Assembly (NCBI GenBank): GCA_965228015.1
Contig: OZ245787.1
Coordinates: 1,588,023-1,652,022, forward strand
From: Peptococcia bacterium
GTDB lineage: Bacteria > Bacillota > Peptococcia > Peptococcales > SKKY01
Direction: 5' to 3'
Length of the DNA stretch: 64,000 bases
The notes beneath the pieces are model-generated. The model did no database searches and had not been told where the DNA came from. It saw only the letters and a program-made list of their open reading frames with translations. Position numbers and translations under genes: made by a program. Position 1 is the stretch's first letter. Every line of letters starts with the position of its first letter. This document shows, piece by piece, positions 20,560 to 54,922 of this stretch.

Positions 20560-20677
20560 AAAATACCATCCTTCCCTTTTCAGAATAAAATATAAATTAA
20601 CCACATTCCTTAAAGTTTACCCCAAAAGGTGGTAAAATAAAAAGAAAATAACCCGCTGATTTGGGGACGTTTTGGTG

Positions 20678-21973
20678 TGATCCCCTAAAAGGGTACAGAT
20701 TAGGGACAGTAGATTTCAATAAATTAATTACATGAAAAAATCTTTTTATAGAATCTTGGAGGGACACCTCCAAGATTCTATTGTGTCCTATCATTTATAT
20801 AATGATTCATGTACTCCTCAGTTATTTCTTTTATTTCTTCAATACTTTTGAGTCTTTTTTTTGTGAAGATTAATACTTTCTGTTTTGTAATGGCTAAAAA
20901 AACTTTCCGCTTTAGCATTGTTCCAACAGTTTCCCCTTCTAGACATGCTTTGAATAGCTCCTAGGGTATTTAAATATCCTGAATATTCTTTGCTAGTGTA
21001 CTGGACTCCCTGGTCACTGTGAATAATAGTATCATTAAGGTCAAACTTTTTTGATAACTTTTCAATCGTTTTCACCGTTAGAGTAGTGTCTGGATTTTTG
21101 CTATACTCCCAGCTAACTGGTTCATTATTAAAAAGATCTAATGCGACACACAAGTATAATTTTGAATTGCGATAAGGGATGCAAGCAATATCTGTAGCAA
21201 TCTTTTTTCCAGGTTTGTCTGTTTTAAAATCTCTTCTCAGGATATTCTCTTTAATCTGCTTATCATCATGTATTTTATTCTTCTTCCTTCTGATAATTGA
21301 TCCTAGGCTGTTCTCTCTCATGATTCTTTGTATCTTTTTATGATTTACAATAGTTTTAAAAACAAATCGAAGTTCATTTTGAATCTGTCTGTATCCATAA
21401 ACTTTTTTGATTTATTATATATCTGAATAATTATTTTCTTAATTGGGACTTCTTTTTTTATTGGTTTGTTTCTGAAGTTGTAATAGGACTTTCTTTTTAC
21501 TTCAGCAATTTCACAAAGAAGTTTTACTGAATATTTAAATTCCAATACAAAGATAGCTTTATATTTTAATTCTCTGGCTTTTATTTTTTAGGTATAAAGG
21601 GTTGTAAATGTTCTAATTATTCATAATATTCAATTCTGGCTCTTAATCTCTCATTTTCTTTTTCATATTCGATTTCTCTAGCTGTTCTTGGTTGATGTTC
21701 TATTTTATCTGGCTGGCTAGTTATTTTATCAGGATCTTTTTTAGAATCTTTAGAAATAAGTCCCTTTTCTTTTAATTGTTTTTCCCAATTAAGTATATAG
21801 TTTTTTGAAGATAAATTGTACTTTGCAGTAATCTTTCTTACCCCTAGGTTGCTTTCGTAATAGTCTTTAATTACAGAGAGTTTAAATTCATTAGAATAGT
21901 TCTTTTTTATTAAAATCAGCCCCCAAAATTAGTATATCTTACTGTCCCTAATTTGTGTAACTTTTGAGGGTCA
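20678..21973 (-). mobile_element. Degenerate relative of the dominant IS3-family element (copy F)
   Basis: Ends TGATCCCCTAAAAGGGTACA.. and ..TGAGGGTCA align with the IRs of the 1.3-kb IS. The transposase frame is broken many times (fragments 20839-21321, 21345-21545) and the start codon is lost. Confidence 0.75.
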
Positions 21974-22038
21974 GACTATTTCTAAAATCAGCGCGTTATC
22001 CACAGGCAGAGAAATTTTAAGGATATGAGGATATAGAA

Positions 22039-22421: not shown

Positions 22422-22795
22422 TGAAGATTATTTTAGTTGCCCTTGGCGGGAGTTTGGGTAGTTTAACCCGATTCAGGTTAGGGAAATTTTTTCTGGAAGA
22501 GGTTGGAATTCAATACCGATAGGAACCTTTTTTGTAAATATAACAGGAGCTTTTTTCTTGGCTTATTATCAGGTTTAGGTACAATAGGTACAGGTACAAG
22601 CGGGGACATATATATTTATAGATTTTTAGGAGATGGCTTTTTTGGAGCCTATACAACGTTTTCTACATTTATGTATGAAGGGTTCAATTTCTTTCAGGGA
22701 AAAAACAGTTAAACGCACTTGCTTACATAGGTTCAAGTATTATTTTAGAGATAATTGGTTTCACACTAGGTTTTTGGATTTCACCCTGTGGATAA
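22421..22795 (+). pseudogene. crcB: Fluoride ion channel CrcB (second of pair), frameshifted; its 3' end runs into the palindromic repeat
   Basis: MKIILVALGGSLGSLTRFRLG.., later ..GAYTTFSTFMYEG in other frames; the stop codon lies within the TGTGGATAA box at 22787-22795. Confidence 0.6.
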
Positions 22796-22817
22796 ATTGC
22801 ACTAAATAGAACTGGTC
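22784..22817. repeat. Half copy (right arm) of the DnaA-box palindromic repeat
   Basis: CCCTGTGGATAAATTGCACTAAATAGAAC, identical to the right arm of the copy at 26571-26600; the left arm is absent. Confidence 0.6.
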
Positions 22818-24115
22818 TGACCCCCAAAAATTACACAAAATTGGGACAGTAAGATATACTAATTTTGGGGGCTGATTTTAATGACAAAGAACTATTCTAA
22901 TGAATTTAAACTCTCTGTAATTAAGGAATATTACGAAAGCAATCTTGGGGCAAGAAAGATTACTGCAAAGTACAATTTATCTTCAAAAAATCTTGTTCTT
23001 AATTGGGAAAAACAATTAAAAGAAAAAGGACTTCTTCCAACAGAAGCTAAGAAAGATCCGGATAAGATAAAAATCAGATCAGATAAAATAGATTTTCCTG
23101 AGAAAACACAAAGAGAAATTGAATACGAAAAAGAAATAGAACATCTTTATGCTAAAATTGAATACTACGAACAATTAGAGCATTTACAGCCCTTTATTTC
23201 TAAAAAAACAAAAGTCAGGGAGCTAAAGTACAGAGCTATATTTGCTTTGGAATTTAAATATACAGTAAAATTTCTTTGCGAAATTGCTGGAGTAAAAAGA
23301 AAAGCCTATTGCAATTTCAGAGACAAACCAATAAAAAAAGAAGATTCCATTGAGAAAATAATTATTCAAATATATAACAAATCAAAAGGAATTTTTGGTT
23401 ACAGAAGAATAGGAAATGAGCTAAGAAATGCGTTTAAAATAGTTGTTAATCATAAAAAGATTCAAAGAATAATGCAGGAAAACAATCTCAGATCCAGAAT
23501 CAGAAGAAAAAAGAATAGGATTCAAGATGATAAACAATTCAAAGCCAATATATTAAACAGGGATTTTAAGGCAAGTCGCCCAGGAGAAAAAATAGCCACA
23601 GATATTACCTGTATTCCTTACAGAAACTCTAAGCTATATCTGTGTGTTGCCCTAGATCTGTTTAACAATGAGCCAGTAAGCTGGGAATACAGTAAGAATC
23701 CTGACAGCAAGCTGACTGTAAAAACTATTGAAAAACTTTCAAAAAAGATAGGTATTAAGAATACTGTTATCCATAGTGATCAAAGTGTTCAATACACAAG
23801 CAAAGAATATTCCAGCTATTTAAAGTCTTTAGGAGCAGTTCAAAGTATGTCCAGAAGAGGAAATTGCTGGGATAATGCGAAGATTGAAAGTTTCTTTAGC
23901 CATTACAAAACAGAAAGTATTAATCTCTACAAGAAAAGAATCAAAAGTTTTAAAGATATAAAAGAAATTACTGAAGATTACATTAAATTTTATATAAATG
24001 ACAGGACGCATAGAAACCTTGGAGGCGTCCCTCCAAGGTTTCTATAAACAGATTTTTTCATTTAATTAATTTGGTGAAATTTACTGTCCCAGAAGTGTAC
24101 CCTTTTTGGGGGTCA
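22818..24115 (+). mobile_element. IS3-family insertion sequence, dominant type, copy A
   Basis: IRs TGACCCCCAAAAATTACAC..TGGGACAGTAA / ..TTACTGTCCCAGAAGTGTACCCTTTTTGGGGGTCA (may extend 4-5 bp as TGGTC/CACCA); one of five near-identical copies. Confidence 0.85.
22881..24047 (+). CDS. IS3-family transposase, uninterrupted single ORF (388 aa)
   Basis: N-terminal HTH (NYSNEFKLSVIKEYYESNLGARKI), rve core ..ATDITCIPY.., HSDQSVQYTS, RRGNCWDNAKIESFF. Confidence 0.85.
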   Translation: MTKNYSNEFKLSVIKEYYESNLGARKITAKYNLSSKNLVLNWEKQLKEKGLLPTEAKKDPDKIKIRSDKIDFPEKTQREIEYEKEIEHLYAKIEYYEQLEHLQPFISKKTKVRELKYRAIFALEFKYTVKFLCEIAGVKRKAYCNFRDKPIKKEDSIEKIIIQIYNKSKGIFGYRRIGNELRNAFKIVVNHKKIQRIMQENNLRSRIRRKKNRIQDDKQFKANILNRDFKASRPGEKIATDITCIPYRNSKLYLCVALDLFNNEPVSWEYSKNPDSKLTVKTIEKLSKKIGIKNTVIHSDQSVQYTSKEYSSYLKSLGAVQSMSRRGNCWDNAKIESFFSHYKTESINLYKKRIKSFKDIKEITEDYIKFYINDRTHRNLGGVPPRFL

Positions 24116-24200
24116 CACCAAAGCGTCCCCTGCGGAGCTGATTTGCCTCTTTGTTTTTAATTTGTTTTATGTTATTATTTTTTAGATTGAAGGTGATATT

Positions 24201-26527: not shown

Positions 26528-26531
26528 AATA

Positions 26532-26600
26532 GGGGAAGCTTCCATTTGGTGCAATTTATCCACAGCCTCAACCCTGTGGATAAATTGCACTAAATAGAAC
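26532..26600. repeat. DnaA-box palindromic repeat (full copy) abutting IS copy B
   Basis: GGGGAAGCTTCCATTTGGTGCAATTTATCCACAG cctcaac CCTGTGGATAAATTGCACTAAAT; perfect TTATCCACA at 26556-26564 and TGTGGATAA at 26575-26583. Confidence 0.7.
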
Positions 26601-26605
26601 TGGTC

Positions 26606-27902
26606 TGACCCCCAAAAATTACACAAAATTGGGACAGTAAGATATACTAATTTTGGGGGCTGATTTTAATGACAAAGAACTATTCTAATGAATTTAAACT
26701 CTCTGTAATTAAGGAATATTACGAAAGCAATCTTGGGGCAAGAAAGATTACTGCAAAGTACAATTTATCTTCAAAAAATCTTGTTCTTAATTGGGAAAAA
26801 CAATTAAAAGAAAAAGGACTTCTTCCAACAGAAGCTAAGAAAGATCCGGATAAGATAAAAATCAGATCAGATAAAATAGATTTTCCTGAGAAAACACAAA
26901 GAGAAATTGAATACGAAAAAGAAATAGAACATCTTTATGCTAAAATTGAATACTACGAACAATTAGAGCATTTACAGCCCTTTATTTCTAAAAAAACAAA
27001 AGTCAGGGAGCTAAAGTACAGAGCTATATTTGCTTTGGAATTTAAATATACAGTAAAATTTTTTTGCGAAATTGCTGGAGTAAAAAGAAAAGCCTATTGC
27101 AATTTCAGAGACAAACCAATAAAAAAAGAAGATCCCATTGAGAAAATAATTATTCAAATATATAACAAATCAAAAGGAATTTTTGGTTACAGAAGAATAG
27201 GAAATGAGCTAAGAAATGCATTTAAAATAGTTGTTAATCATAAAAAGATTCAAAGAATAATGCAGGAAAACAATCTCAGATCCAGAATCAGAAGAAAAAA
27301 GAATAGGATTCAAGATGATAAACAATTCAAAGCCAATATATTAAACAGGGATTTTAAGGCAAGTCGCCCAGGAGAAAAAATAGCCACAGATATTACCTGT
27401 ATTCCTTACAGAAACTCTAAGCTATATCTGTGTGTTGCCCTAGATCTGTTTAACAATAAACCGGTAAGCTGGGAATACAGTAAGAATCCTGACAGCAAGC
27501 TGACTGTAAAAACTATTGAAAAACTTTCAAAAAGATAGATATTAAGAATACTGTTATCCATAGCGATCAAGATGTTCAATACACAAGCAAAGAATATTCC
27601 AGCTATTTAAAGTCTTTAGGAGCAGTTCAAAGTATGTCCAGAAGAGGAAATTGCTGGGATAATGCGAAGATTGAAAGTTTCTTTAGCCATTACAAAACAG
27701 AAAGTATTAATCTCTACAAAAAAAGAATCAAAAGTTTTAAAGATATAAAAGAAATTACTGAAGATTACATTAAATTTTATATTAATGACAGGACGCAAAG
27801 AAGCCTTGGAGGTGTCCCTCCAAGGCTTCTATAAACAGATTTTTTCATTTAATTAATTTGGTGAAATTTACTGTCCCAGAAGTGTACCCTTTTTGGGGGT
27901 CA
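26606..27902 (+). mobile_element. IS3-family insertion sequence, dominant type, copy B
   Basis: Same IRs as copy A; splits prs from pth. Confidence 0.85.
26669..27834 (+). pseudogene. IS3-family transposase, frameshifted
   Basis: ORFs 26669-27538 and 27634-27834; the A run at 27529-27533 has 5 A where other copies have 6 (..KLSKKIDIK..). Confidence 0.8.
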
Positions 27903-27939
27903 CACCAAAGCGTCCCCTAAAAAATGAAAGGATCTTTTT

Positions 27940-28560
27940 ATGTATGTGATTGTTGGCCTGGGGAATCCCGGGAAAAAATATGAGAATACGAAGCATAATG
28001 TTGGCTTTTGGGTTATTGATGCCTTGGCTGAAAAAATGGGAATTTCCCTGGACAAGAAAAACTGTAGCGCAATTTCAGGCACAGGAATTTACCAAGGGAA
28101 AAAAGTTCTTCTTGCCAAGCCTCAAACCTATATGAACCTTAGCGGTGAGGCGGTAATTCAACTTTTGAATTACTACGACAACCTGAATGAACTTCTGATT
28201 ATCCATGACGACCTTGATCTTGCTGAAGGGGTAATCCACTTTAAGGAAGGCGGGGGACTTGCGGGACACAATGGTCTAAAATCCATTGCCCATCATCTTC
28301 ATTCCAATGATTTTGACCGCCTCCGGGTAGGAATCGGCCGTCCAGAATTTCAAAAAGTTGTAAATTATGTACTGGAGTCTTTTTCAAAAGAAAAACAAGA
28401 GTTTTTAGATGAAGCAGTAAAAGCCACCATTCCTGGCGTTGAAACCTGGCTGGAACAGGGAATCCAGAAAGCCATGAATCAATTCAACCAGAAAAAAGAA
28501 AAAGAAAAAAATAAAGAAGAAACTAAAGAAAATAAAAAAGAGACTGAAGCTAATGAATGA
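27940..28560 (+). CDS. pth: Peptidyl-tRNA hydrolase with Lys/Glu-rich C-terminal tail
   Basis: MYVIVGLGNPGKKYENTKHNVGF.., GHNGLKSI; about 25 extra residues QKKEKEKNKEETKENKKETEANE. Confidence 0.9.
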   Translation: MYVIVGLGNPGKKYENTKHNVGFWVIDALAEKMGISLDKKNCSAISGTGIYQGKKVLLAKPQTYMNLSGEAVIQLLNYYDNLNELLIIHDDLDLAEGVIHFKEGGGLAGHNGLKSIAHHLHSNDFDRLRVGIGRPEFQKVVNYVLESFSKEKQEFLDEAVKATIPGVETWLEQGIQKAMNQFNQKKEKEKNKEETKENKKETEANE

Positions 28561-31500
28561 GATGAGTACCCAAGTGGATTTCCGCCAATTCTTAAGCCTG
28601 GAAAAACTGGATCAGCGACTTCTTAATCTGCCAAAACACACCTTGATTTATGGTTTAGATGACCATAAAAAAGCAATTTTGGCAGCTTTGTTATGGTCAA
28701 AATCAGGAATATTTATATTCAAAAATGAAAAGAAAACAAAATATTTTCTGGAAAAGTTCCAGGAAACCGGCGTGGGAAGCTGCTACTACTACCCAGCGGA
28801 AGAGCGAATTCCCTTTGAAGTATTCGCCAAAAGTAAGGATATCGAAAGCCAGAGAGCGGAAGTTCTAACCCGCCTGGCAAACGACGAAAAAATTATTGTC
28901 TTCGCCAGCATTCAGGCTATCCGTCGCAAACTCAACCCCCTGGCAGACTACAAAAAACATTATACAACTAAAAACCGGAGACACCCTGGATCTGAAGGAT
29001 TTCACATCCCACCTTATTCAGGCCGGCTTTGAGCGGAAAGAAATGGTAATAAAGCCAGGAGATTTCAGCATCCGCGGGGGAATCATCGACATTTTCCCTG
29101 TAATTTCTAACAATCCCCTAAGAATCGAACTTTTTGATGACGAAATAGATTCCATCAGAACCTTTGATCTGAACCCTCAAAAATCCTTTGAGAAAACAAA
29201 CCAGATTCTTGTTGGACCCACCAGGGAGTTTATTTGTCCCACCCTCACGGAAGTTCCCCAGGCTCTGGAGAAAGATTACCGGGAACAGCTAGCCCGCTAT
29301 GAGGAATCAGAAAGAAAAAATGACACCCTGAATTTCAAAAATGCAGCTTTGAATTTCAAAAACTTCTACGGGCAAATTAAAGAAAAAATACAAAATAACC
29401 TGTGCGTTAATGAAGAAGAGTATCTTTATCACTACCTCTTCTCCCAGGATACGACGATTCTGGACTATTTCCCAAACAATGCCCGAATCTACATTGATGA
29501 ACCAAAAAGAGTTATCTCCGCCCTGGAGCTTTTGGAAAAAGAAGAAGGAAAAATTTACACAGACCTCCTGAAAAAAGGTCGGGTTTTAAAATATCAGCAA
29601 AAAATTTACAGCACAATAGAAGAACTTGCCCCAATTTTTAAAGAAAAAGAAACTGTTTTCATGGCACTCCTTCCAACATCAGGAGCCTTTGAAATACCTT
29701 TTTCCCAGCGAATTAACGGAGATTTTCTTGGAGACGCAATTCCCTTCTTCAACAAGACAGACCATCTTTTTCGCTTTATGGAAGACAAAACAAAAAAGGC
29801 TACCGCACAATTCTGGCCATCCACAGCAAAGGAAACCGGGAAGCTCTAATTAAGGAAACTCATCACTATAAAACAACAATATCCGATTTTAAAAACCAGC
29901 AGGAATCGGGAATATATTTTGCTCACCTGAACCTGGAAAAAGGTTTTGAAGATAAAAAAGGCAAGACCCTCTTTATTACGGAACTGGATATTTTCAACAA
30001 GAAAAAGAAAAAACCCGCCAGATTTATAACAAAGATGCAGAGCGTATCGGCTCCGTTTTCGAGCTGGAAATTGGGGATTTTGTGGTTCACTCATCCCACG
30101 GTATTGGCCAGTATTTCGGCATCAACACCCTAGAAGTGGAGGGAATAAAAAAAGATTACCTTCTTATTAAATATAAAGGGGAGGACAAACTTTACGTCCC
30201 GGTTGAGCAGGTTCACAATCTTCAAAAATTTATAGGCAGTGAGGAAAAACGCCCTAAGCTAAACAAACTTGGAGGCAGCGAATGGCAGCGTACTAAAGCA
30301 AAAGTTCAAAAATCTATTGAAGATATGTCTGAAGAGCTTCTTGAACTTTATGCCCAGCGTACAATGAACCAGGGATTTGCCTTTTCTCCAGATGATTTTA
30401 TGCAGCAGGAGTTTGAAGATAACTTCCCCTACGAAGAAACTCAAGATCAGCTTCGTGCCATTATGGAAATCAAAAAAGATATGGAAAATCCAACTCCAAT
30501 GGATCGTCTCCTTTGCGGCGACGTAGGATACGGAAAAACTGAAGTTGCAATGAGAGCAGCCTTTAAAGCAGTGCGGGACAGCAAGCAAGTGGCAGTCTTG
30601 GTGCCTACAACAATTCTGGCAGAGCAACACTTTCAGTCTTTCAGCAAACGATTTGAAGGATTTCCTGTAAAAGTTGAAGTACTAAGCCGATTTAAATCAC
30701 CGAAGGAAGAAGTGGAGATTAAGGAAGACGCAGCCAAAGGTAAGGTGGACATCCTTATCGGCACCCACAAGCTCCTCTCCAACACCTTGAAATTTAAGGA
30801 TTTAGGACTTCTAATCGTAGATGAAGAGCAACGCTTTGGGGTAAAAGATAAAGAAAAAATTAAGCAAATAAAAGCATTTGTGGACGTTCTCACACTATCA
30901 GCAACCCCAATACCCAGAACACTGCAAATGTTTCTGGCAGGACTTAGGGATATGAGCTTAATTGAAACACCACCAAAAAACCGTTATTCAATTCAAACCT
31001 TCGTAGTAGAAAAAACGATGAACTTTTAAGAGAAGTCATTCTTCGTGAGCTTGGAAGAGAGGGACAGATTTTCTACGTTCAAAACCGGGTTCACGACATC
31101 TATTTAGAAGCAGGGAAGCTGATGGAAACGGTTCCAGAAGCCTCCTTCGCCGTTGCCCACGGTCAGCTTAAGGAACATGAACTGGAAAAAACAATGATCG
31201 AATTTATGGAAAAAGAAAAAGACTGTCTTGTCTGCGCCACTATCATCGAAACCGGTCTGGACATTCCCAACGTTAACACTCTGATAGTGGACGAAGCTGA
31301 TAAATATGGTCTCTCCCAGCTTTATCAGCTTCGAGGCAGGGTAGGCCGCAGTGAAAGGGTTTTATCTGCCTCACATACAAGGCAGATAAAACCCTTTCAG
31401 AAAACGCTGAAAAGCGTCTGAAAGCTATCAAAGATTTCGCCGAACTGGGATCCGGCTTTAAAATTGCCATTCGTGACTTGGAAATCCGGGGTGCGGGAAA

Positions 31501-32094
31501 TCTTCTGGGCAAGGAACAGCACGGACACCTTGATGCCATCGGCTTCGCCCTTTACACTCAGATGCTTCAGGAAACTATTCAGGATCTGAAAATTAAAAAG
31601 AAAAAAGAAGCAGGAGAGTTTACTCAGGAAGATGCAATCAAGAGTAGAGACAGGGAGCAGGAAATATCTCTGCCCATCAGCGCCCTTATCCCGGAAGAAT
31701 ATATTCGGAACCACGGCCTGAAACTGGAGTTCTATCAGAAAATTAAAATGCCCCAACAGAGGATGTTCTTATAGATGTCACCGACGAGCTTATTGACCGT
31801 TTTGGAGATTTCCCCGAAGAAGTTGCCAACCTCATTTCTCTTGGTGAGATCCGCATTAAAATGGAAAAGCTGGGAATTTCATCTCTGAAATTGAAAAATA
31901 ACACTCTGGAGTTTCTAATTTCAATAGATGCCTCCCTGGATCCTAAAACAATTTTAAAACTTTCTGAAAACTTTAAGAATCAAGTGTCATTTAAGGATGA
32001 CAATGGTTTTATGATAAGATATAGTATAAAATACACCAATAAAGAAGAACTTCTGAGATACATAGAAGATTTTCTAAAACATTTAGGAGGCTAA
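28553..32094 (+). pseudogene. mfd: Transcription-repair coupling factor, full length but broken by six frame changes
   Basis: Pieces 28553-, 28896-, 29798-, 30082-, 31122-, 31478-, 31861-32094 together cover about 1170 aa ([58 protein letters not shown]). Breaks at A runs 28952-57, 29792-97, 30008-13, 31010-15, 31354-56, 31745-48. Confidence 0.85.
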
Positions 32095-32098
32095 TTTA

Positions 32099-33061
32099 AT
32101 GATTAGACAGGTACAAAAAATTCAAAAAAAATCTTCCCTGCTATTTCTTGCAGGGGCGTTGATTCTTATCCTTACACTTTCAGGATGCTCCGGCTCAGCT
32201 GGCAGCGACAAAATTTTAGCAAATGTTAACGAAACTGATATTACAGAAAGTCAGTTTAATCAAAGATTCAACATAATTGCAGGTCAGTACGACTTCGACC
32301 CGAATAATGCAGAGCACATGGCTTACCAGGAAGAATTAAAAACACAAATTTTAAACAGCATTATTGATGAAGCTGTTCTTCTTGAAGAAGCAGCAAAAAA
32401 AGGCTTAACAGTGGAGGCTCAGGAAATTGAAGACGAAATTGCAATGTATAAGTCAAGTTTCAGTTCTCAAGATGAGTTTAAAAAATATTTAAGTGATTAT
32501 TTAAAGCTAACGGAAGATGAATTTAGAAATATTCTTCAAAATGACCTTCTTGTTTCCAAGCTTTATGAAGAAGTGGCCGGAGAAATTAATTCAACAACAT
32601 CTTCACTAAGAGAATATTTTGATAATAACAAAGATCTTTTTGTAAAAGGTGAGGAAGTATCTGCGACTCATATTTTAGTGGAAACAGAGGAAGAAGCAAA
32701 AAAAATTATTGAAGAAATTAATGGCGGTGCAGATATGAACCAGCTGGCTGCAGATAAATCTACAGATCCAACAGCTAAGGATAACAAAGGGGAGCTAGGT
32801 TATTTTGGTAAAGGCAGAATGGTTCCTGAGTTTGAAAATGTAGCTTTTGCCATGGAGCCTGGGGAGTTTTATCCTGAACCAGTAAAAAGTCAGTTTGGAT
32901 ACCATGTAATCCGCTTAAATGACAAAATTGAGGGAGAAGATATTTCCTTCGCAGATGTGGAAGAGGAAATTAAATTTTATCTGATAGAGGAAGAAAGAAA
33001 CAAAGCTTTTTCTGACTATATTGATGAACTAAGAAGCGCAGCAACAATAGAAATAAAGTAA
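32099..33061 (+). CDS. Parvulin-type peptidyl-prolyl isomerase lipoprotein (PrsA/SurA-like)
   Basis: 320 aa; lipobox LTLSGCSG; rotamase motif SATHILV..GELGYFGKGRMVPEFE..FGYHVIRL. Confidence 0.8.
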   Translation: MIRQVQKIQKKSSLLFLAGALILILTLSGCSGSAGSDKILANVNETDITESQFNQRFNIIAGQYDFDPNNAEHMAYQEELKTQILNSIIDEAVLLEEAAKKGLTVEAQEIEDEIAMYKSSFSSQDEFKKYLSDYLKLTEDEFRNILQNDLLVSKLYEEVAGEINSTTSSLREYFDNNKDLFVKGEEVSATHILVETEEEAKKIIEEINGGADMNQLAADKSTDPTAKDNKGELGYFGKGRMVPEFENVAFAMEPGEFYPEPVKSQFGYHVIRLNDKIEGEDISFADVEEEIKFYLIEEERNKAFSDYIDELRSAATIEIK

Positions 33062-33095
33062 TTATTTTTGAATTGAAGTAACAGGGGAGATCACC

Positions 33096-34673
33096 TTGCA
33101 AAAAAAATCATTTATAAAAGGTGCTTTAATCTTAAGCGCCGCGGGGATCCTGAGCAAAACACTGGGAGCAGTATACAGGATTCCCTTTGCTCGTATAATA
33201 GAGGGAGAGGGATTAGGCATTTACCAGATGGCCTATCCCTTTTATACGTTAATACTGGCGGTGTCCACTGCGGGAATTCCTTTGGCCGTGTCCAAACTTA
33301 TTTCCGAAAGGGAATGTCAAGGAGATTATGATGGGGTTCGAAAAGTTTTCCGCCTTTCTCTAATTGCTCTCACCGCCTTCGGTATTTTGGCATCGGGACT
33401 CCTTTTCCTTTCCGCAGACTGGATTTCCATCAACATTTTAAAAGAGCCGAGGGCAGCCCTAAGCTTAAAAGCAATAGCTCCAGCAATTCTTTTTACCTCA
33501 GTAATAGCAAACTTCCGGGGTTTTTTCCAGGGACATCAGCGCATGACACCAACGGCAGTTTCTCAGGTGCTTGAGCAATTTGTCAGAGTAGATACAGTCT
33601 TCATCGCTACCTGGTTTCTTCTGGATAAAGGCCTGGAGCTTACTGCAGCAGGGGCAAGTTTTGGAGCCAGTACAGGATCCTTCGCAGCCTTAGTGGTAAT
33701 AATTTTAATTTATATGTTCTCCAGGGAAAGAAAAGAAACATCCCAGACTTGTAATGAAGAAAAAAGCGGGGACTTATTTAAAAAAATTGTCCAGTTGGCA
33801 ATACCCATCACAATCGGAGCCTTGGTTCTTCCTTTAATGCAGATTATGGATACTTTTCTAGTTCCTGGAACTTTACAAAAAGCGGGTGTTGAAGCCGCCC
33901 GGGCAACAGATTTATTCGGTCGGCTTTCCGGAATGGCAGGATCAATCATCAACCTGCCCTTTATGGTAACAACAAGTTTAGCGGCATCTCTGGTTCCATC
34001 GATAAGTGAGAAAATTAAGCTTGGATTGGAAAAGGAAGTGCAAACCCTATTAAGCAGCGGATTCAAATTAGCTGCGGTTATCGTACTTCCCGCAACAGCT
34101 GGGCTGATGGTTTTATCGGAGCCAATAATGACCATGCTTTTTAAAGAGCCGGAGGCGGGATCAGCACTTCTGTGGATGGCGCCAACAGTTCTGGCAATCG
34201 GAGCATATCAGGTTGCCTCTGGGACACTTCAAGGCTACGGAAAGGTAATGGTTCCAGTTGTCAGTTTAGTTTCCGGAGCTACAATAAAGGCGGTTCTTAC
34301 CTATTTCCTTATAATCAAAGGAATGGGAATCGAAGGGGCAGCCTTGGCAACAGTAATCGGCTACCTGGCGGCAGCAGGAATAAATATTCATATAATGAAC
34401 AAATTTACCGGAAAAAGCTGGTTTTCATTCCAGGAACACTTAACTAAGCCCTTTAGCGCAGTTTTGATGATGTCAGTGGCGGCAATTTTTTTCCACCGCA
34501 TTTTTATCTTTGCAGGAAATTCTATGGCAACCCTGGCAGCAATATCCTTAGCCGGAGTAGTCTACCTTTTGGTTTTGGTTAAAATCAAAGGAATCAAGGA
34601 AGAAGAAATCCAGCAAATGCCAAAATTCGGGGAAAAACTGGTAAAGATTGGTAAAAAGGTGAAATTATTATGA
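33096..34673 (+). CDS. MOP-superfamily polysaccharide/lipid-II flippase-like protein (SpoVB/YabM/MurJ-like)
   Basis: 525 aa, about 14 TM helices, TTG start; position between mfd and mazG matches Bacillus yabM. Confidence 0.7.
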   Translation: MQKKSFIKGALILSAAGILSKTLGAVYRIPFARIIEGEGLGIYQMAYPFYTLILAVSTAGIPLAVSKLISERECQGDYDGVRKVFRLSLIALTAFGILASGLLFLSADWISINILKEPRAALSLKAIAPAILFTSVIANFRGFFQGHQRMTPTAVSQVLEQFVRVDTVFIATWFLLDKGLELTAAGASFGASTGSFAALVVIILIYMFSRERKETSQTCNEEKSGDLFKKIVQLAIPITIGALVLPLMQIMDTFLVPGTLQKAGVEAARATDLFGRLSGMAGSIINLPFMVTTSLAASLVPSISEKIKLGLEKEVQTLLSSGFKLAAVIVLPATAGLMVLSEPIMTMLFKEPEAGSALLWMAPTVLAIGAYQVASGTLQGYGKVMVPVVSLVSGATIKAVLTYFLIIKGMGIEGAALATVIGYLAAAGINIHIMNKFTGKSWFSFQEHLTKPFSAVLMMSVAAIFFHRIFIFAGNSMATLAAISLAGVVYLLVLVKIKGIKEEEIQQMPKFGEKLVKIGKKVKLL

Positions 34674-35496
34674 GTGAAATTAATTCAATAACAGGTAAAC
34701 TTTCAGAAACTGGCAAAAAGATCAGTTTTGAAGATCTGGGGAAAATTATAGATCAACTCCTTGGGGAAGATGGTTGTCCCTGGGATAAAGAGCAAACCCA
34801 TGAATCCCTTAAACGTTATTTAATAGAAGAATCTTACGAAGTTCTGGAAGCAATTGACGACAATGATCCGGAAGGATTAAAGGAAGAACTGGGAGATGTG
34901 CTCCTGCAAATCTTTTTCCATGGCAAGCTTGCTGAAAAAGCAGGAACCTTCACAATGGAAGATATCACCGACACAATCTCCAAAAAACTAACCCGTCGTC
35001 ATCCCCATGTATTCGCAACAACTGAAGTTGAAGATGCAGAAGAAGTTACCAGGAACTGGGATGAAATAAAGAATCAGGAAAAGTTTGAAAAAATATCAGC
35101 TACGAAAGCATGCTGGATAAAGTTCCGAAAAATCTTCCATCCTTACTTGAGTCCTTGAAAATTCAGGAAAAAGTTGGCAAGGTTGGTTTCGACTGGGACA
35201 CCATAGAGGAAGTTGCAGAAAAAGTCCGGGAAGAGGAAGAAGAACTTAAAGAGGCAATTCAAATTGGAGATCAACAGAAGATCGAAGAGGAATTTGGGGA
35301 TCTTTTATTTACTCTTGTAAGCATCGGACGTTTCCTCAATTTAGACCCAGAGGAGTCTCTTTTTAAAGCAAATAACAAATTTCGAAGAAGATTTCGCTAT
35401 ATTGAGGAAAATTTTCGGGATAAAAGTCTAGAAATAGCCAAAAAAAACAGAAAAAGTATGGAAAAACTATGGAAAGAATCAAAAAAAAATGTATAA
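34670..35496 (+). pseudogene. mazG: MazG nucleoside-triphosphate pyrophosphohydrolase, single homopolymer frame break
   Basis: Two MazG domains (GCPWDKEQTHESLKRYLIEESYEVLEAI; EELKEAI..EEFGDLLFTLV); ORFs 34670-35158 and 35110-35496 join if the A6 run 35088-35093 gains one base. Confidence 0.8.
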
Positions 35497-35917: not shown

Positions 35918-35926
35918 AAAGGCGGA

Positions 35927-36000
35927 GGGGATGTTTCTATTTTGATCGCGTTTTCCACAGGATAGCCCCTGTGGAAAACGCGATCAAAATAGAACTGGTC
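35927..36000. repeat. DnaA-box palindromic repeat (full copy) abutting IS copy C
   Basis: GGGGATGTTTCTATTTTGATCGCGTTTTCCACAG gatagcc CCTGTGGAAAACGCGATCAAAATAGAAC; boxes TTTTCCACA at 35951-35959 and TGTGGAAAA at 35970-35978. Confidence 0.7.
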
Positions 36001-37297
36001 TGACCCCCAAAAATTACACAAAATTGGGACAGTAAGATATACTAATCTTGGGGGCTGATTTTAATGACAAAGAACTATTCCGATGAATTTAAACTCTCTG
36101 TAATTAAGGAATATTACGAAAGCAATCTTGGGGTAAGAAAGATTACTGCAAAGTACAATTTATCTTCAAAAAATCTTGTTCTTAATTGGGAAAAACAATT
36201 AAAAGAAAAAGGACTTCTTCCAACAGAAGCTAAGAAAGATCCGGATAAGATAAAAATCAGATCAAATAAAATAGATTTTCCTGAGAAAACACAAAGAGAA
36301 ATTGAATACGAAAAAGAAATAGAACATCTTTATGCTAAAATTGAATACTACGAACAATTAGAGCATTTACAGCCCTTTATTTCTAAAAAAACAAAAGTCA
36401 GGGAGCTAAAGTACAGAGCTATATTTGCTTTGGAATTTAAATATACAGTAAAATTTCTTTGCGAAATTGCTGGAGTAAAAAGAAAAGCCTATTGCAATTT
36501 CAGAGACAAACCAATAAAAAAAGAAGATTCCATTGAGAAAATAATTATTCAAATATATAACAAATCAAAAGGAATTTTTGGTTACAGAAGAATAGGAAAT
36601 GAGCTAAGAAATGCGTTTAAAATAGTTGTTAATCATAAAAAGATTCAAAGAATAATGCAGGAAAACAATCTCAGATCCAGAATCAGAAGAAAAAAGAATA
36701 GGATTCAAGATGATAAACAATTCAAAGCCAATATATTAAACAGGGATTTTAAGGCAAGTCGCCCAGGAGAAAAAATAGCCACAGATATTACCTGTATTCC
36801 TTACAGAAGCTCTAAGCTATATCTGTGTGTTGCCCTAGATCTGTTTAACAATGAGCCAGTAAGCTGGGAATACAGTAAGAATCCTGACAGCAAGCTGACT
36901 GTAAAAACTATTGAAAAACTTTCAAAAAAGATAGATATTAAGAATACTGTTATCCATAGCGATCAAGGTGTTCAATACACAAGCAAAGAATATTCCAGCT
37001 ATTTAAAGTCTTTAGGAGCAGTTCAAAGTATGTCCAGAAGAGGAAATTGCTGGAATAATGCGAAGATTGAAAGTTTCTTTAGCCATTACAAAACAGAAAG
37101 TATTAATCTCTACAAGAAAAGAATCAAAAGTTTTAAAGATATAAAAGAAATTACTGAAGATTACATTAAATTTTATATAAATGACAGGACGCAAAGAAAC
37201 CTTGGAGGTGTCCCTCCAAGGTTCTATAAACAGATTTTTTCATTTAATTAATTTGGTGAAATTTACTGTCCCAGAAGTGTACCCTTTTTGGGGGTCA
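36001..37297 (+). mobile_element. IS3-family insertion sequence, dominant type, copy C
   Basis: Same IRs; lies between hup and the S4-domain gene. Confidence 0.85.
36064..37251 (+). CDS. IS3-family transposase, uninterrupted ORF (395 aa)
   Basis: Full-length with HSDQGVQYTS and RRGNCWNNAKIESFF. A 1-nt difference near the 3' end lengthens the tail relative to copy A. Confidence 0.85.
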   Translation: MTKNYSDEFKLSVIKEYYESNLGVRKITAKYNLSSKNLVLNWEKQLKEKGLLPTEAKKDPDKIKIRSNKIDFPEKTQREIEYEKEIEHLYAKIEYYEQLEHLQPFISKKTKVRELKYRAIFALEFKYTVKFLCEIAGVKRKAYCNFRDKPIKKEDSIEKIIIQIYNKSKGIFGYRRIGNELRNAFKIVVNHKKIQRIMQENNLRSRIRRKKNRIQDDKQFKANILNRDFKASRPGEKIATDITCIPYRSSKLYLCVALDLFNNEPVSWEYSKNPDSKLTVKTIEKLSKKIDIKNTVIHSDQGVQYTSKEYSSYLKSLGAVQSMSRRGNCWNNAKIESFFSHYKTESINLYKKRIKSFKDIKEITEDYIKFYINDRTQRNLGGVPPRFYKQIFSFN

Positions 37298-37329
37298 CAC
37301 CAAAGCGTCCCCTGAAGGAGGTGGGCGGC

Positions 37330-38820: not shown

Positions 38821-40633
38821 TCAGCCAATAACACAAACACTTCCTTCTTGCTCCTTGCAGAGGGATTTTATTTTCCCCGCCGCCTCGCTAAGTTCAAAAA
38901 CACTGCGATACTGCCCGGACTTCCCGTAAACCAGGGCGATAGATAATGAGGTCAAATTAAAACGCTGTTTTTTCCCTTGCCGGTTTTTCTCATAAAAATA
39001 TCCAAGTTTAATATCATCTTCAGGGAAGAAAACTCTTTTCTCCTTCTCAAAATTTTTAATAATATTTTCCGCCAAGGCCTTCCTCTCCGGAATGCTTCCA
39101 GGTAAAGTTATTACAAAATCATCCCCGCCGATATGCCCGATAAAAGCAGAGTTTCCTTTCAAATTGCAAATATTATCCAGCTGATTTTTGGCAATCTGCC
39201 CCGTGAGGGAAATTAATAAATCCCCACGCTCAAATCCATACTTGTCGTTAAAAGGCTTAAAATTGTCCAGATCTAGATACAAAACGCAGTAATCTAAGAC
39301 ATTCCTGAAGATTTTTTTCGATCATAATGTTTCCCGGAAGCCCTGTCAGAGGGTTAGAATGCCGGGCGATACTCAGTTCGATCTGACTGGTTTTTTCCAG
39401 CAAATCTTTAATTGTCACCACACCGAAGTAGGATCCATCCCGAATAATAATTATGTGATCATAAATACTCTCATTATCCCGGTTCATACTTGTGCGGGAA
39501 ACATCCCGGATAGGCATATTGTAATCCAAAATCATGGGAGCAGAATCCATCAGTCCGGCAACATTTTTCTTCAGAAAAAGTTCCAATCCATATTGGCGGC
39601 CAATCAGGAAATAAAACTTGTTACGCATAACCAATCCCATAGGACGGCCATCTTCTAAAACAGGTATTCCTAATATTTCTGGATGAGAGCGGAAGATTTT
39701 ATCTAAATCATGACCTTGAGCGTTAGTACCTACTGTAATTTCAGCTTTTACTATACTTCCAACATTTATATCCAGTAGAAAACACTGGGATGAACTCTGA
39801 CAATTTAGATCAGCCAAAAGTTTGATTTGATTTTGGGAGTCTTTGTTTAAGATAAAATCTGTCTGAGAAGGCCGTTTAAGAAAATACCCCTGGCCGTAAT
39901 CTACTCCAATGCGAATTAAAGTTTCCAGTTCGTCAAGAGTTTCGATACCCTCGGCAATCATTTTTATCCCGCTGGACTGGCAGAAACTTTTAAAAGTTTT
40001 CAAAAGAGACTGTTTTGTAAGATCCTTGTCGATGTCCCGAACCAGAGCCATATCAATTTTCAAAAACTCTGGGCGGGTTGCCACCAGCATACTTAAATTA
40101 GAGTAGCCAGTGCCTACATCATCAATAGCAATCTGATAGCCCTGCTCCCGGTAATTTTTCAATGCAGTAGCGTAAAGATCTTGATAAGCCACAGAATTGT
40201 GCTCTGTAATTTCAAAAACAACATTTTTTGCAGAAATGCCATATTCCTCCAAAGATTTTTTGGTTAGGCCGGATTGATATTTAGAGTCGTTAAAAATATC
40301 TGCATCTACATTAATAAAAAGAAGTTGCCCCTCCTGCAAAAAGCTCCGGGAGTTTTCCAACGCCTGCTGACGGCAAAGATACTCAATATCCCAAAGAAAA
40401 TCATTTTCTTTAGCGTAAGCCAGAAGAGCAAGAGGAGACTCAAAATCAGAACCCTCAGGTCCCCGGCTTAAAGCCTCGTAACCTAAAATCTCACCATTTT
40501 TTAAAGAAACAATAGGTTGGAAAAGAGATTTAATATTTTTTTGATTAAGAATTCTTAAAAATTCGTAATAACGTTTATATATTGTTGTATAATTTATCAT
40601 ATGAGACAATTTTCTCATCATCCTGCAAATCAC
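38821..40633 (-). pseudogene. EAL - CBS - GGDEF signalling protein, split by a frameshift before the GGDEF domain
   Basis: ORF 39257-40633: EALSRGP.., ..DDVGTGYSNL.., CBS pair, ..NPLTGLPGN. ORF 38821-39282: YLDLDNFKPFNDKYGFERGD..GHIGGDDFVI (GGDDF variant). The junction near 39285 is not at a homopolymer. Confidence 0.75.
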
Positions 40634-40707: not shown

Positions 40708-42417
40708 ATGTACAAAGCAGTAGAAAAAATTATCCGCAGAAAATGGGACACGTCCCTTGGAATGAAAAGGGGAAACGGTTGCGAACACGGAAACATCCCC
40801 AGCGCAAGTGATGCAAGCGGGGACACTTCTAGAGATGTGAAAATTTCCAGAGTTGAGGGAAGTTCCCCCCCACCCGTTATCATTTTAGGCCTTTCAGGTG
40901 GTCCCGATTCCATGGCCCTTTTCCATATATTAAATAAATTAAGGGAAAAATATTCCTTTAAACTTGTTGCGGCTCACGTGAACCACATGTTCCGGGGAGA
41001 AGAGGCGGATGAGGAAGAAGCCTATCTGCAAAAAATGGTTAAAGAACTTGTCTCTCAGTCAGATGCCGGCTTGACCATTGAAACTCTTCGAGTGGATGTA
41101 AAGAAAATCGCTCAGGAAAGAAAACTTTCTAATCAGGATGCCGGACATCAGGTGCGGAAAGAATTTTTTCAGATGCTTAGTAAAAAATATGATGCAGATT
41201 ATGTTTTTCTCGCTCATCATCAAGATGACCGGGTTGAGAGTTTTTTTCTTCATCTTCTTCATGGCGCCGGAGTTCAGGGCTTAACGGCTCTTTCGAAAGT
41301 GGAGAATTACGGTGAAGATGGAAGCGGGTTGAAAGTAATCAGGCCATTAATAGGATTTTCCAAGGATGAGATTCTTAAATTTTGCCAGGAGCAGGGGATT
41401 TTCTATTTCAAAGATCCCAGCAATGAAAAGGCTTTGTACAATAGGAATAAAATTCGCTTGGAACTGATACCCCAGCTGGAGCAAGAATATAATCCGAAGA
41501 TTAAGGATGTAATTCTTCGCAGTGTGGAGATTCTTGAAGACGAAGATGCTTTTTTGAATGATGTAGTTCAGGAAAAGTACCAAGAGCTTGTTCGGGAGAA
41601 TTTTTCAGAGGAAGTGGCGCTGCTACTTTTAGATAAGAAAGAATTCCAAAAATTTCATAAAGGAATCCAACAGCGCCTTGTGATAAAGATTTTAAATAAA
41701 TTAGCTCCAGGAGAAGTCGGATATAACTTTGAAAAGATTGAAAAAATCCTGGAGCTTTTAAATGAAGAAAAAGGGCAGCGAAGGTACAAACTTTCCCACA
41801 ACTCCTGGCTGGAAGTGGGCTACGAGGAAGGAAAGTTTGTGCTGTATCCTCAACGGGAATCAGCTGAAAATGTCGAGGATGCAGGAAGCCATTTCGATTT
41901 TGACGTGGACATCGAAATGGACATCCACGTCGATGTCCATTTCGATAAAATCGAAATGGAAGGCCCCCTCACCTTTCAGGCCGGGGGCCAAAGCTTCACC
42001 TTCGCTGCTGTCGCAGCTGGGACGCTTCCATTCTCAGCGGGTTTTTCACATCCCCAACCTTGTGGAAAACCCGCGGAAAAAAGAAGCGTCCCAGCTTCCG
42101 CGCTGATTTTTGCTCCGGGGAAGCTTACCCTCCGCACCCGTCGGGATGGGGATGTCATTAAACCCGCCGGGGGGAAGACTAAAAAGCTGAAGAAATTTTT
42201 TATGGAGAAAAAAATTCTTCAAAATGAGCGGGACAAGATCATCCTCCTGGCCTCCGGCAAGGAAATCATCTGGATCCCCAACATGGTCATCTCCCAAAAC
42301 TATCTTCCGGAAAATCCTGCAGATTGTGTCTCTAATAAAAACAATCTTGAACAGAGTGGAAAAAAAATGTTAAAAGTCTTCTGGAGGGGGAAAGAGAGTT
42401 TGAAAAATAGCCCCTGA
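40708..42417 (+). CDS. tilS: tRNA(Ile)-lysidine synthetase with repeat-derived insertions
   Basis: PP-loop LSGGPDSMAL, HHQDDRVESF, C-terminal RTRRDGDVIKPAGG..KKLKKFF; about 100 aa longer than usual because of inserts at about 40745-40875 and 41880-42140. Confidence 0.85.
   Translation: MYKAVEKIIRRKWDTSLGMKRGNGCEHGNIPSASDASGDTSRDVKISRVEGSSPPPVIILGLSGGPDSMALFHILNKLREKYSFKLVAAHVNHMFRGEEADEEEAYLQKMVKELVSQSDAGLTIETLRVDVKKIAQERKLSNQDAGHQVRKEFFQMLSKKYDADYVFLAHHQDDRVESFFLHLLHGAGVQGLTALSKVENYGEDGSGLKVIRPLIGFSKDEILKFCQEQGIFYFKDPSNEKALYNRNKIRLELIPQLEQEYNPKIKDVILRSVEILEDEDAFLNDVVQEKYQELVRENFSEEVALLLLDKKEFQKFHKGIQQRLVIKILNKLAPGEVGYNFEKIEKILELLNEEKGQRRYKLSHNSWLEVGYEEGKFVLYPQRESAENVEDAGSHFDFDVDIEMDIHVDVHFDKIEMEGPLTFQAGGQSFTFAAVAAGTLPFSAGFSHPQPCGKPAEKRSVPASALIFAPGKLTLRTRRDGDVIKPAGGKTKKLKKFFMEKKILQNERDKIILLASGKEIIWIPNMVISQNYLPENPADCVSNKNNLEQSGKKMLKVFWRGKESLKNSP
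42019..42092. repeat. IS-free copy of the DnaA-box palindromic repeat, inside the tilS ORF
   Basis: GGGACGCTTCC attctca GCGGGTTTTTCACA tccccaac CTTGTGGAAAACCCGC ggaaaaaa GAAGCGTCCC; outer 10-bp and inner stems pair. Confidence 0.7.
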
Positions 42418-44948: not shown

Positions 44949-44979
44949 AAAAGACCGCTGATTAGGGGACAGTTTGGTG

Positions 44980-46277
44980 TGACCCCCAAAAAGGGTACAC
45001 TTCTGGGACAGTAAATTTCACCAAATTAATTAAATGAAAAAATCTGTTTATAGAAGCCTTGGAGGGACACCTCCAAGGCTTCTTTGCGTCCTGTCATTAA
45101 TATAAAATTTAATGTAATCTTCAGTAATTTCTTTTATATCTTTAAAACTTTTGATTCTTTTCTTGTAGAGATTAATACTTTCTGTTTTGTAATGGCTAAA
45201 GAAACTTTCAATCTTCGCATTATCCCAGCAATTTCCTCTTCTGGACATACTTTAAACTGCTCCTAAAGACTTTAAATAGCTGGAATATTCTTTGCTTGTG
45301 TATTGAACACCTTGATCACTATGGATAACAGTATTCTTAATATCTATCTTTTTTGAAAGTTTTTCAATAGTTTTTACAGTCAGCTTGCTGTCAGGATTCT
45401 TACTGTATTCCCAGCTTACCGGTTTATTGTTAAACAGATCTAGGGCAACACACAGATATAGCTTAGAGTTTCTGTAAGGAATACAGGTAATATCTGTGGC
45501 TATTTTTTCTCCTGGGCGACTTGCCTTAAAATCCCTGTTTAATATATTGGCTTTGAATTGTTTATCATCTTGAATCCTATTCTTTTTTCTTCTGATTCTG
45601 GATCTGAGATTGTTTTCCTGCATTATTCTTTGAATCTTTTTATGATTAACAACTATTTTAAACGCATTTCTTAGCTCATTTCCTATTCTTCTGTAACCAA
45701 AAATTCCTTTTGATTTGTTATATATTTGAATAATTATTTTCTCAATGGAATCTTCTTTTTTTATTGGTTTGTCTCTGAAATTGCAATAGGCTTTTCTTTT
45801 TACTCCAGCAATTTCGCAAAGAAATTTTACTGTATATTTAAATTCCAAAGCAAATATAGCTCTGTACTTTAGCTCCCTGACTTTTGTTTTTTTAGAAATA
45901 AAGGGCTGTAAATGCTCTAATTGTTCGTAGTATTCAATTTTAGCATAAAGATGTTCTATTTCTTTTTCGTATTCAATTTCTCTTTGTGTTTTCTCAGGAA
46001 AATCTATTTTATCTGATCTGATTTTTATCTTATCCGGATCTTTCTTAGCTTCTGTTGGAAGAAGTCCTTTTTCTTTTAATTGTTTTTCCCAATTAAGAAC
46101 AAGATTTTTTGAAGATAAATTGTACTTTGCAGCAATCTTTCTTACCCCAAGATTGCTTTCGTAATATTCCTTAATTACAGAGAGTTTAAATTCATCGGAA
46201 TAGTTCTTTGTCATTAAAATCAGCCCCCAAGATTAGTATATCTTACTGTCCCAATTTTGTGTAATTTTTGGGGGTCA
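44980..46277 (-). mobile_element. IS3-family insertion sequence, dominant type, copy D (inverted)
   Basis: Same IRs; same transposase lesions as copy E (shared nonsense codon and NKPVSW variant); palindromic repeat on its left-end (inner) side. Confidence 0.85.
45048..46214 (-). pseudogene. IS3-family transposase with nonsense codon
   Basis: ..SLGAV*SMSRRGNCWDNA: TAA replaces the CAA of other copies; ORFs 45252-46214 and 45048-45248. Confidence 0.8.
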
Positions 46278-46349
46278 GACCAGTTCTATTTAGTGCGGGC
46301 TATCCACAAGAGTTACCCTGTGGATAGCCCGCTGATTTTGGAAGCGTCC
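46278..46349. repeat. DnaA-box palindromic repeat (mirror image of 53461-53531), with a 9-bp duplication at its outer end
   Basis: GTGCGGGCTATCCACAAGAGTTACCCTGTGGATAGCCCGCTGATTTTGGAAGCGTCC; boxes at 46300-46308 and 46319-46327. GAAGCGTCC (46341-46349) is repeated at 49551-49559. Confidence 0.7.
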
Positions 46350-46511
46350 GTTAGTGTAAAATAATTATGGGTAAAAAAACAAAAAAATATTAGAGCAACT
46401 CCTTATGTTACAATTAAATCGCTAAACCAAATCGCAAAAAAGGAGAAACTCTAATGAATAATAGGGGGGTGCGGACAAAAACCTGGACTAAAAATACAGG
46501 AGGATGTCCAT

Positions 46512-54829: not shown

Positions 54830-54922
54830 CACCAAAGCGTCCCCTCCGCTTTGCAAAAAATTTACATTAATTAATTTGCCTTGTATAGTCTTAATTGATA
54901 AAATATCCGAGTAAATTTAATT

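Follow-up and report, generated by a model that had tools for sequence, protein, structure and literature searches.

The mfd gene (transcription-repair coupling factor) on a 64,000-nucleotide (nt) stretch of Peptococcia bacterium contig OZ245787.1 (hereafter the window, meaning this whole stretch) contains a 20-bp perfect palindrome that is very probably the scar of a quasi-palindrome template switch, in which the left arm of an imperfect inverted repeat was overwritten by copying the right arm. It is a mutational scar without present function. An earlier reading of the sequence alone (the sequence-only reading) had reported a 17-bp perfect inverted repeat here that coincides with one of the mfd frame breaks. 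Our repeat search of the window bears out the repeat and extends it, the 17-nt arms being nested within arms of 20 nt each that are 100% complementary (31352-31371, TGAAAGGGTTTTATCTGCCT, and 31380-31399, AGGCAGATAAAACCCTTTCA) and flank the 8-nt loop CACATACA. The parts of the site, all on the + strand, are as follows (sister loci L003 and L016 are described below):

31352..31371, +, left arm, rewritten: TGAAAGGGTTTTATCTGCCT; the ancestor is TGAGAGGGTGGCCTACGCCTACCT, 24 nt, encoding (S)ERVAYAY(L)
31355..31367, +, substitution span: G>A at 31355 and GGCCTAC>TTTATCT at 31361-31367
Directly 3' of 31355..31367, within or after the GCCT at 31368-31371, +, 4-nt deletion: ACCT or CCTA, between two CCT repeats
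31372..31379, +, loop: CACATACA, as in the ancestor; contributes to the LTY codons of the downstream frame
31380..31399, +, right arm, donor or template: AGGCAGATAAAACCCTTTCA, ancestral sequence that codes for K-A-D-K-T-L-S; L003 and L016 have it unaltered
31292..31333, +, another natural quasi-palindrome close by in mfd: complementarity 16/18, the same in the window and the sister clade; an internal control

The claim that such a repeat is far beyond chance also held, as perfect inverted repeats with loops of 3-20 nt reached maximum lengths of 9-14 nt when the window was simulated 100 times with a first-order Markov model. As single-stranded DNA the palindrome folds at -21.7 kcal/mol (z = -10.7 relative to shuffled sequences, none of 200 of which folds as well), and no second copy of the 20-nt arm is present elsewhere in the 64-kb window. 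Length alone does not make this palindrome unique, because long inverted repeats also occur elsewhere in the window, as repeat-like intergenic hairpins (below) and as terminators; its distinctive trait is that it is a perfect 20-mer inside coding sequence.

The ancestral state of the site

Six orthologous loci from independent samples, in two sister clades, display the ancestral state. The closer clade (96.4-96.7% nt identity) comprises L017 (JGI 3300034524), L018 (SRR11566844), L019 (SRR22287497) and L020 (SRR21539855), and the second (~93% nt identity) comprises L003 (RZYY01000211) and L016 (JGI Ga0265293). All six read ...AG(C/T)GAGAGGGTGGCCTACGCCTACCT-CACATACA-AGGCAGATAAAAC(C/T)CTTTCAGAAAAC and encode S-E-R-V-A-Y-A-Y-L-T-Y-K-A-D-K-T-L-S-E in frame, with the mfd reading frame intact at the site, and GGCCTACGCCTACCT is the ancestral sequence there. 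These loci carry an imperfect quasi-palindrome (...TGAGAGGGTGGCCTACGCCTACCT-CACATACA-AGGCAGATAAAACCCTTTCA) whose counterpart in the window is AGTGAAAGGGT----TTTATCTGCCT-CACATACA-AGGCAGATAAAACCCTTTCAGAAAAC. The ancestral fold has an outer stem of 9 bp with one G.T pair (TGAGAGGGT / ACCCTTTCA), then a 7x7 internal loop and an inner stem of 3-4 bp (GCCT or CCT paired with AGG(C)); it is weak, at -6.4 kcal/mol vs. the value above for the window palindrome.

The window shares its loop, right arm and flanks with L003 and L016 without a difference (in the case of L003, over ~30 nt upstream), and positions 31372-31399 are unchanged. The left arm differs by seven substitutions and the loss of 4 nt, all within 24 nt, and all seven substitutions together with the length change yield 20/20 complementarity with the unchanged right arm. 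The perfect palindrome is absent from all of the relatives. A history in which it was ancestral and later degraded in the sisters is very unlikely, because the sister version encodes the conserved AYAY in frame; this segment, which follows GRVGRS, is kept in distant Mfd proteins, and the adjoining YKADKxL(S/T)E motif is conserved among Mfd homologues. The 48-nt sequence that bears the palindrome was found three times in two assemblies, the 99-aa open reading frame (ORF) that spans the frameshift forms a singleton cluster, and a scan of JGI metagenomes for the derived allele in other samples gave solely one contig, of the ancestral type. A more distant locus, L001 (P0097, ~78-86% identity), was discarded as an ancestral reference; it is too diverged and falsely implied that both arms had changed, which the closer relatives corrected.

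These comparisons support the central proposal of the sequence-only reading, that template switching perfected an imperfect palindrome and in doing so shifted the frame: the imperfect, in-frame state exists in the six sister assemblies, and every difference between window and sisters at the site lies in the left arm and matches the reverse complement of the right arm. Its description of the lesion requires revision. The frame does shift inside the left arm as it had stated, but the exact break was misplaced: the upstream frame still reads S-E-R-V (31350-31361), and L-T-Y-K-A-D-K picks up at 31370 in the next frame, where the orthologues read GRVGRS-ERV-AYAY-LTYKADK. Thirteen ancestral nt, encoding AYAY, have been exchanged for 9 nt, and the window mfd has lost these four conserved codons; the lesion is not the -1 that had been supposed, but its net -4 acts on the frame as a -1 would. 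An extra A in the AAA at 31354-31356, which had been suggested to restore a single frame, does reopen it, but the product (SEKGFICLTY) is unlike the ancestral protein. The AAAA predicted for relatives is not there; they have GAGAGG. Loss of a single base (AAAA>AAA) is ruled out, as none of the relatives has AAAA and ERV is kept in the upstream frame.

A single template switch reproduces the window sequence

The event may be pictured as follows. The ancestor held a chance quasi-palindrome within mfd, just past helicase motif VI. During DNA synthesis the nascent strand would have quit its template, copied 14-20 nt from the complementary arm and then rejoined the template, replacing the left arm by the exact reverse complement of the right arm. 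The switch would have used the loop-proximal CCT and not the CCT 4 nt upstream, and because of this 4 nt would have been lost. The outcome would be the 20-bp perfect hairpin, the loss of the conserved AYAY strand of Mfd, and the frameshift.

We simulated such a switch with a nascent minus strand on L003-type sequence, running through the right arm and loop into the loop-adjacent CCT, folding back, and returning to the template. One intramolecular switch of this kind suffices to give the exact window sequence, with the right arm as template. There are 16 equivalent solutions because 3-nt microhomologies are present at both junctions (AGG/CCT at one, TCA plus ACCCT at the other), and in the reconstruction a self-templated tract of 14-20 nt stands for 18-24 template nt. 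The mirror-image switch across the replication fork gives an identical product. Cumulative GC skew climbs across the window and nearly all of the housekeeping genes are on the + strand, and for these reasons the + strand is probably the leading strand. If so, intramolecular fold-back would imply a lagging nascent strand, and a cross-fork switch would imply a leading nascent strand that copied the lagging-strand template.

The substitution rate of mfd on the window branch is ~2% (61 polarised changes), which predicts ~0.5 changes in 24 nt; by our own Poisson estimate, the probability of seven changes that are all complementary to the other arm is of the order of 1e-9. The mfd site is by far the largest reverse-complement-templated coding cluster in the ~30 kb that was aligned with the sister genome.

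Several points weigh against this account. That there was a single event is deduced from the end states, which fall short of proving it; likewise, the origin of the event at a replication fork and the strand involved are inferred from the sequence, with which both strands and both the intramolecular and the cross-fork switch are compatible. Slippage between the CCT direct repeats could have removed the 4 nt independently, the synonymous G>A at 31355 may be an ordinary substitution (the orthologue L005 also has GAA), and the microhomology at the first jump is merely 3 nt. Finally, the derived allele comes from one lineage and from assemblies only, once in a 1.9-Mb contig at NCBI and twice in a single contig at ENA, and the NCBI and ENA copies may share one sample.

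Alternative explanations

Could the palindrome and the frameshift have arisen in two steps? A 4-nt slippage at CCT (GCCTACCTC > GCCTC) would then have caused the frameshift and a separate, length-neutral switch would have corrected the 7x7 loop, in either order. The ancestral fold lends itself to this, as its loop is symmetric and closed by GCCT/AGGC and its correction needs no change in length; moreover, the 4 deleted nt sit between direct CCT repeats, and mfd contains five other slippage-type deletions. But those five are in or beside A-runs and the deletion at the palindrome is not, two independent rare events would be needed inside 24 nt on a short branch, and one switch at the loop-proximal CCT already yields the exact product. 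We consider the two-step history unlikely, and under it too the palindrome is template-switch derived, with the frame break merely coincident. Insertion or conversion of the left arm from another locus, by a small palindromic mobile element or ectopic gene conversion, is scarcely credible. Mobile DNA is abundant here (six IS3-family and two ISL3 copies in 64 kb); however, orthologous mfd coding sequence makes up the left arm's outer 9 nt and the entire right arm, the window has no further copy to serve as donor, and the new sequence is the reverse complement of sequence that is 8 nt away.

An assembly or sequencing artefact hiding a true sequence that is ancestral (or AAAA) deserves attention because the source is apparently a long-read assembly, the other mfd breaks are deletions of 1-2 nt in or next to A-runs (the classic long-read error type), and the allele's one other assembly is a contig that folds back on itself and is probably chimeric. 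Errors of base-calling or polishing do not, however, turn 13 nt into the exact reverse complement of a neighbour; the same 48-nt sequence is seen in all three copies across the two assemblies, 110 A/T runs of at least 6 nt are unbroken in 22 intact ORFs of the window, the neighbouring pth, prsA-like and MurJ-like genes are intact, and other templated clusters occur in intact genes with the frame kept. We regard an artefact as very improbable, and we give equally little credence to the idea that the hairpin was selected for a function, be it to terminate transcription or stabilise RNA ahead of the prsA-like gene or to bind a protein or transposase. The hairpin is very stable, and the window is rich in functional-looking hairpins, including the repeat-like elements that are targeted by an IS3-family element. 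Against a function, the palindrome has a T-tract on neither strand, is not among the seven terminator-like sites that the scan listed and has no Rfam match (Rfam finds only a tRNA, elsewhere in the window), and on these grounds we rejected an intrinsic terminator or structured RNA. Nor does it have sequence kinship with the repeat-like hairpin family; relationship to these hairpins or to the ends of insertion sequences (ISs) was rejected, as their outer-stem and inner motifs are absent and the palindrome derives from coding sequence. It has no second copy in the window, is missing from every relative, and lies in the middle of a dead gene ~700 nt before the next start codon, and the alteration of one arm with the donor arm untouched is a mutational rather than a selective pattern.

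The mfd pseudogene

Frame segments of mfd were defined by three-frame translation and by tblastn with intact orthologues, and breaks were counted relative to the closest intact orthologue, L017 (1180 aa). The gene and its breaks, all on the + strand, are:

28553..32094, +, mfd pseudogene: six indels, seven frame segments
28951 (run 28952..28957), +, break 1: A8>A6 (-2)
29791 (run 29792..29797), +, break 2: A7>A6 (-1)
30012 (run 30008..30013), +, break 3: G lost within AAAAAGA (-1)
31009 (run 31010..31015), +, break 4: A7>A6 (-1)
31360, +, break 5: complex -4 at the palindrome
31744 (run 31745..31748), +, break 6: A5>A4 (-1)

Intact orthologues are 1180-1223 aa long (L004, L005, L006, L017 and L018), and the L003 copy, which is partial, is open over its full extent; the window has no single ORF of ~1180 aa. 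Its mfd fragments align with the intact orthologues over their whole length and contain DEAD/ResIII and Helicase_C domains and faint hits to CarD_TRCF_RID and TRCF, placed as expected for Mfd (UvrB_inter, CarD_TRCF_RID, DEAD/ResIII, Helicase_C, TRCF), and UvrB_inter was recorded for the intact orthologues only. The gene follows pth, in the order prs, pth, mfd, prsA-like, MurJ/SpoVB-like, mazG, an HU gene and others to tilS and ftsH, which is the usual Firmicutes context. Judged from these data mfd is a genuine pseudogene, because the 110 long A/T runs (above) are unbroken and the neighbouring genes are intact. A general homopolymer sequencing error was rejected as the source of the mfd breaks, given the unbroken runs and the fact that six of the seven breaks between pth and mazG are within mfd.

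The mfd of L001 (an Illumina contig at 3.9x) is also disrupted. Its 5' part (1-125) is unrelated sequence and it has one frameshift in the linker region (~518-536), which may be independent decay or a low-coverage artefact.

Other palindrome-perfecting clusters on the window branch

We scanned the ~30 kb alignment of window and sister for window-specific 9-mers whose reverse complement lies no more than 150 nt away. Counting mfd, at least three polarised palindrome-perfecting clusters were found on the window branch, the others being in prfA and prmC. In prfA (49645-50721), a 15-nt perfect inverted repeat (50026-50040 / 50056-50070, GCCCATGTTTTCCGC / GCGGAAAACATGGGC) has a left arm in which three clustered substitutions are the reverse complement of the unchanged right arm, and these change the conserved AANLFRMY of the protein to AAHVFRMY (NL>HV). 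AANLFRMY is kept in the sister L021, the outgroup L022 and 13 cluster members, which places the prfA change on the window branch. This cluster looks like a template switch in an intact essential gene. The prmC gene (50714-51715) has an inverted repeat at 51359-51398 (AACTCTCATCCGGAATC / GAGTCCGGATGAGAGTT, 16/17 complementary) in which, relative to both sister and outgroup, four clustered substitutions in the right arm (GTAGAT>GAGAGT) are the reverse complement of the left arm; the left arm has one reciprocal G>T, complementary to the right arm. At the protein level the differences are Q>H and VD>ES.

In two more cases the change is unpolarised. The hairpin at 35935-35994, one of the repeat-like intergenic hairpins listed below, is perfect over 27 nt in the window and imperfect in the sister, and the centre of its right arm has gone from CCGCGG to GCGATC, which reverse-complements the left arm. 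In tilS, a palindromic low-complexity segment (41889-41965, encoding DVDVDL...) differs from the sister by two deletions of 12 nt each, both in frame, and by changes in the two arms that match one another; the new arm sequences copy the flanking ATCGAAATGG / CCATTTCGAT, and the segment may be another template-switch product. Two candidates were rejected: the palindrome in the LytR-like gene at 55831, as an event of the window branch, and a 10-bp inverted repeat in mfd at ~29474, as a perfecting event, since it is present in relatives and lost in the window.

In the ~30 kb compared, the sister branch yielded no confirmed perfecting cluster; but with so few cases, and a window branch of about double the length, the difference cannot be called significant. 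Might the mfd scar nonetheless be one of a series, with hairpin-templated mutagenesis unusually active in this IS-expanding, Mfd-less lineage? We hold this as a tentative and rather doubtful idea. If it were true, a measurable share of the gene death and protein change that accompany genome degradation would be owed to template switching. The activity might then be tied to the absence of Mfd or of a nuclease that suppresses hairpins, and the knock-out of mfd could be the event that started it.

Lineage degradation and mobile elements

Branch substitutions were polarised over window positions 27940-35496. In mfd, nonsynonymous and synonymous changes number 24 and 37 on the window branch vs. 2 and 24 on the sister branch; in the intact neighbours pth, prsA-like and MurJ-like, they number 18 and 22 vs. 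3 and 19. The ratio is raised in the neighbours too, and the nonsynonymous to synonymous ratio (dN/dS) was rejected as proof of decay specific to mfd; its rise in mfd and neighbours alike indicates lineage-wide relaxed selection. Together with the IS load and the pseudogenes, this raised ratio suggests that the lineage, whose genome is ~1.9 Mb, went through a bottleneck or is restricted to a host or to culture. The degraded genes other than mfd are:

34670-35496, mazG-like gene, probably a second pseudogene: frameshift at ~35088 in an A-run; 275 aa with two MazG domains in the sister genomes
38821-40633, -, EAL-CBS-GGDEF gene: split into ORFs of 458 aa and 153 aa by an 11-nt deletion at ~39295; intact at 596-603 aa in L017, L018 and L021

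The 64 kb contain six copies of a 1.39-kb IS3-family element, which has the ends TGGTCTGACCCCC...GGGGGTCACACCA and encodes a fused 388-aa transposase with HTH_Tnp_1, HTH_21 and rve domains, and two copies of an ISL3-family element, whose transposase is split in two ORFs (zinc ribbon plus HTH, and DDE_Tnp_ISL3). These copies and the repeat-like hairpins are located as follows:

22743-24131, 26531-27920, 35926-37312 and 53457-54845, +, IS3-family copies
44962-46350 and 20663-22006, -, IS3-family copies
10841-12157 and 60260-61577, ISL3-family pair, inverted copies, 99% identical
26531-26599, 35926-35994, 42015-42096, 46290-46350 and 53457-53525, repeat-like intergenic hairpins; also at L017 740-810 and L018 ~7965-8040

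The repeat-like hairpins have the layout GGGGACGC-TTCCATTT..TTATCCACAG-loop-CTGTGGATAA..AAATRGAA-GCGTCCCC, and each arm carries a DnaA-box-like TTATCCACA. Their outer stem (GGGGACGC/GCGTCCCC) and inner motif (TTATCCACAG/CTGTGG) are the elements that the mfd palindrome lacks. In the sister genomes the orthologous sites hold these hairpins empty, and the IS3-family elements are missing there. At least four IS3-family copies (26531, 35926, 53457 and 44962) are inserted at the identical point in the 3' arm of such a hairpin. Hairpin-targeted insertion has been described for IS1397 and ISKpn1, and the insertions in hairpin arms here resemble it.

The ENA contig with the second and third copies of the palindrome (L002/L015, ERZ25074352 ctg19795_26x_l) is a zig-zag fold-back contig of uncertain origin, and we accept it as partial and not independent confirmation of the allele. 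In it the reverse complement of 30156-34421 is fused, through the 7-nt microhomology CCTTCTT, to sequence running on from 29539; one copy has extra deletions of 23 nt (29812-29834) and 5 nt (30311-30315), and a second fold-back is found near the MurJ-like gene. The alternatives for this contig are a chimeric long read and a genuine inverted duplication carried by a subpopulation. Another contig, L023 (ctg19998_59x_l), has prfA-prmC in a different IS-flanked arrangement.

Discussion

The mfd scar is a known kind of mutation and an unusually clean natural example of it. Its interest is that a mechanism known mostly from engineered reporters is seen here in a natural, fully resolved case with a clear consequence, the loss of the AYAY segment and of the reading frame from the normally highly conserved repair factor Mfd. 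Template-switch events also mimic dense clusters of substitutions plus an indel, and would inflate estimates of divergence or dN/dS if their changes were counted as independent; the prfA and prmC cases show this risk in live genes. Recurrence on one branch opens lineage-specific template-switch rates to whole-genome comparison.

The quasi-palindrome mechanism is well established experimentally (PMC7202029, PMC5941160), and four marks of such mutations are present at the mfd site: a pre-existing imperfect repeat, changes that are complementary to the other arm, an unchanged donor arm and spacer, and a product that one switch gives with microhomology at the junctions. In the E. coli quasi-palindrome mutations (the thyA hotspot and lacZ QP5/QP6; Viswanathan et al. 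2000; Seier et al. 2011; PMC7202029) one arm is likewise copied and the palindrome perfected. Those mutations, like the mfd event, include multi-nucleotide changes, and the lacZ reporters also undergo a 4-bp length change, a 4-bp frameshift in an 18-bp quasi-palindrome being removed by the template switch (PMC7202029). Unlike them, the mfd event is natural and fixed in an uncultured Clostridia-like lineage, destroyed a frame rather than restoring one, exchanged 13 nt for 9 nt with correction of a distal mismatch in addition, and is known from sequence alone.

The model of Ripley (1982) for phage T4 rIIB, as it is cited in PMC7202029 and PMC5941160, likewise has a complex frameshift that is predicted exactly by the complementary arm; the mfd event differs from that case in lying on a bacterial chromosome and in being recovered by comparative genomics, not from selected mutants. 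The cross-fork switch of the leading strand of Rosche, Trinh and Sinden (1997), as cited in PMC7202029, would give the same product as the mfd event. In that form it fits the rewriting of the upstream arm if the + strand is leading, and its product is identical in sequence to that of the intramolecular lagging-strand version.

The closest comparative parallel is with the clusters of changes attributed to short-range template switches (Loytynoja and Goldman 2017; PMC7954356; PMC9435742; PMC8604942 for yeast coding genes; PMC5941160 for proteobacterial inverted repeats), in which there is likewise one inverted local copy and the ancestral state is, as here, recovered from sister genomes. Those studies are genome-wide statistics, mostly on eukaryotes or on non-coding inverted repeats of E. 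coli; the mfd case is by contrast one fully resolved event in a bacterial pseudogene, with companions in essential genes.

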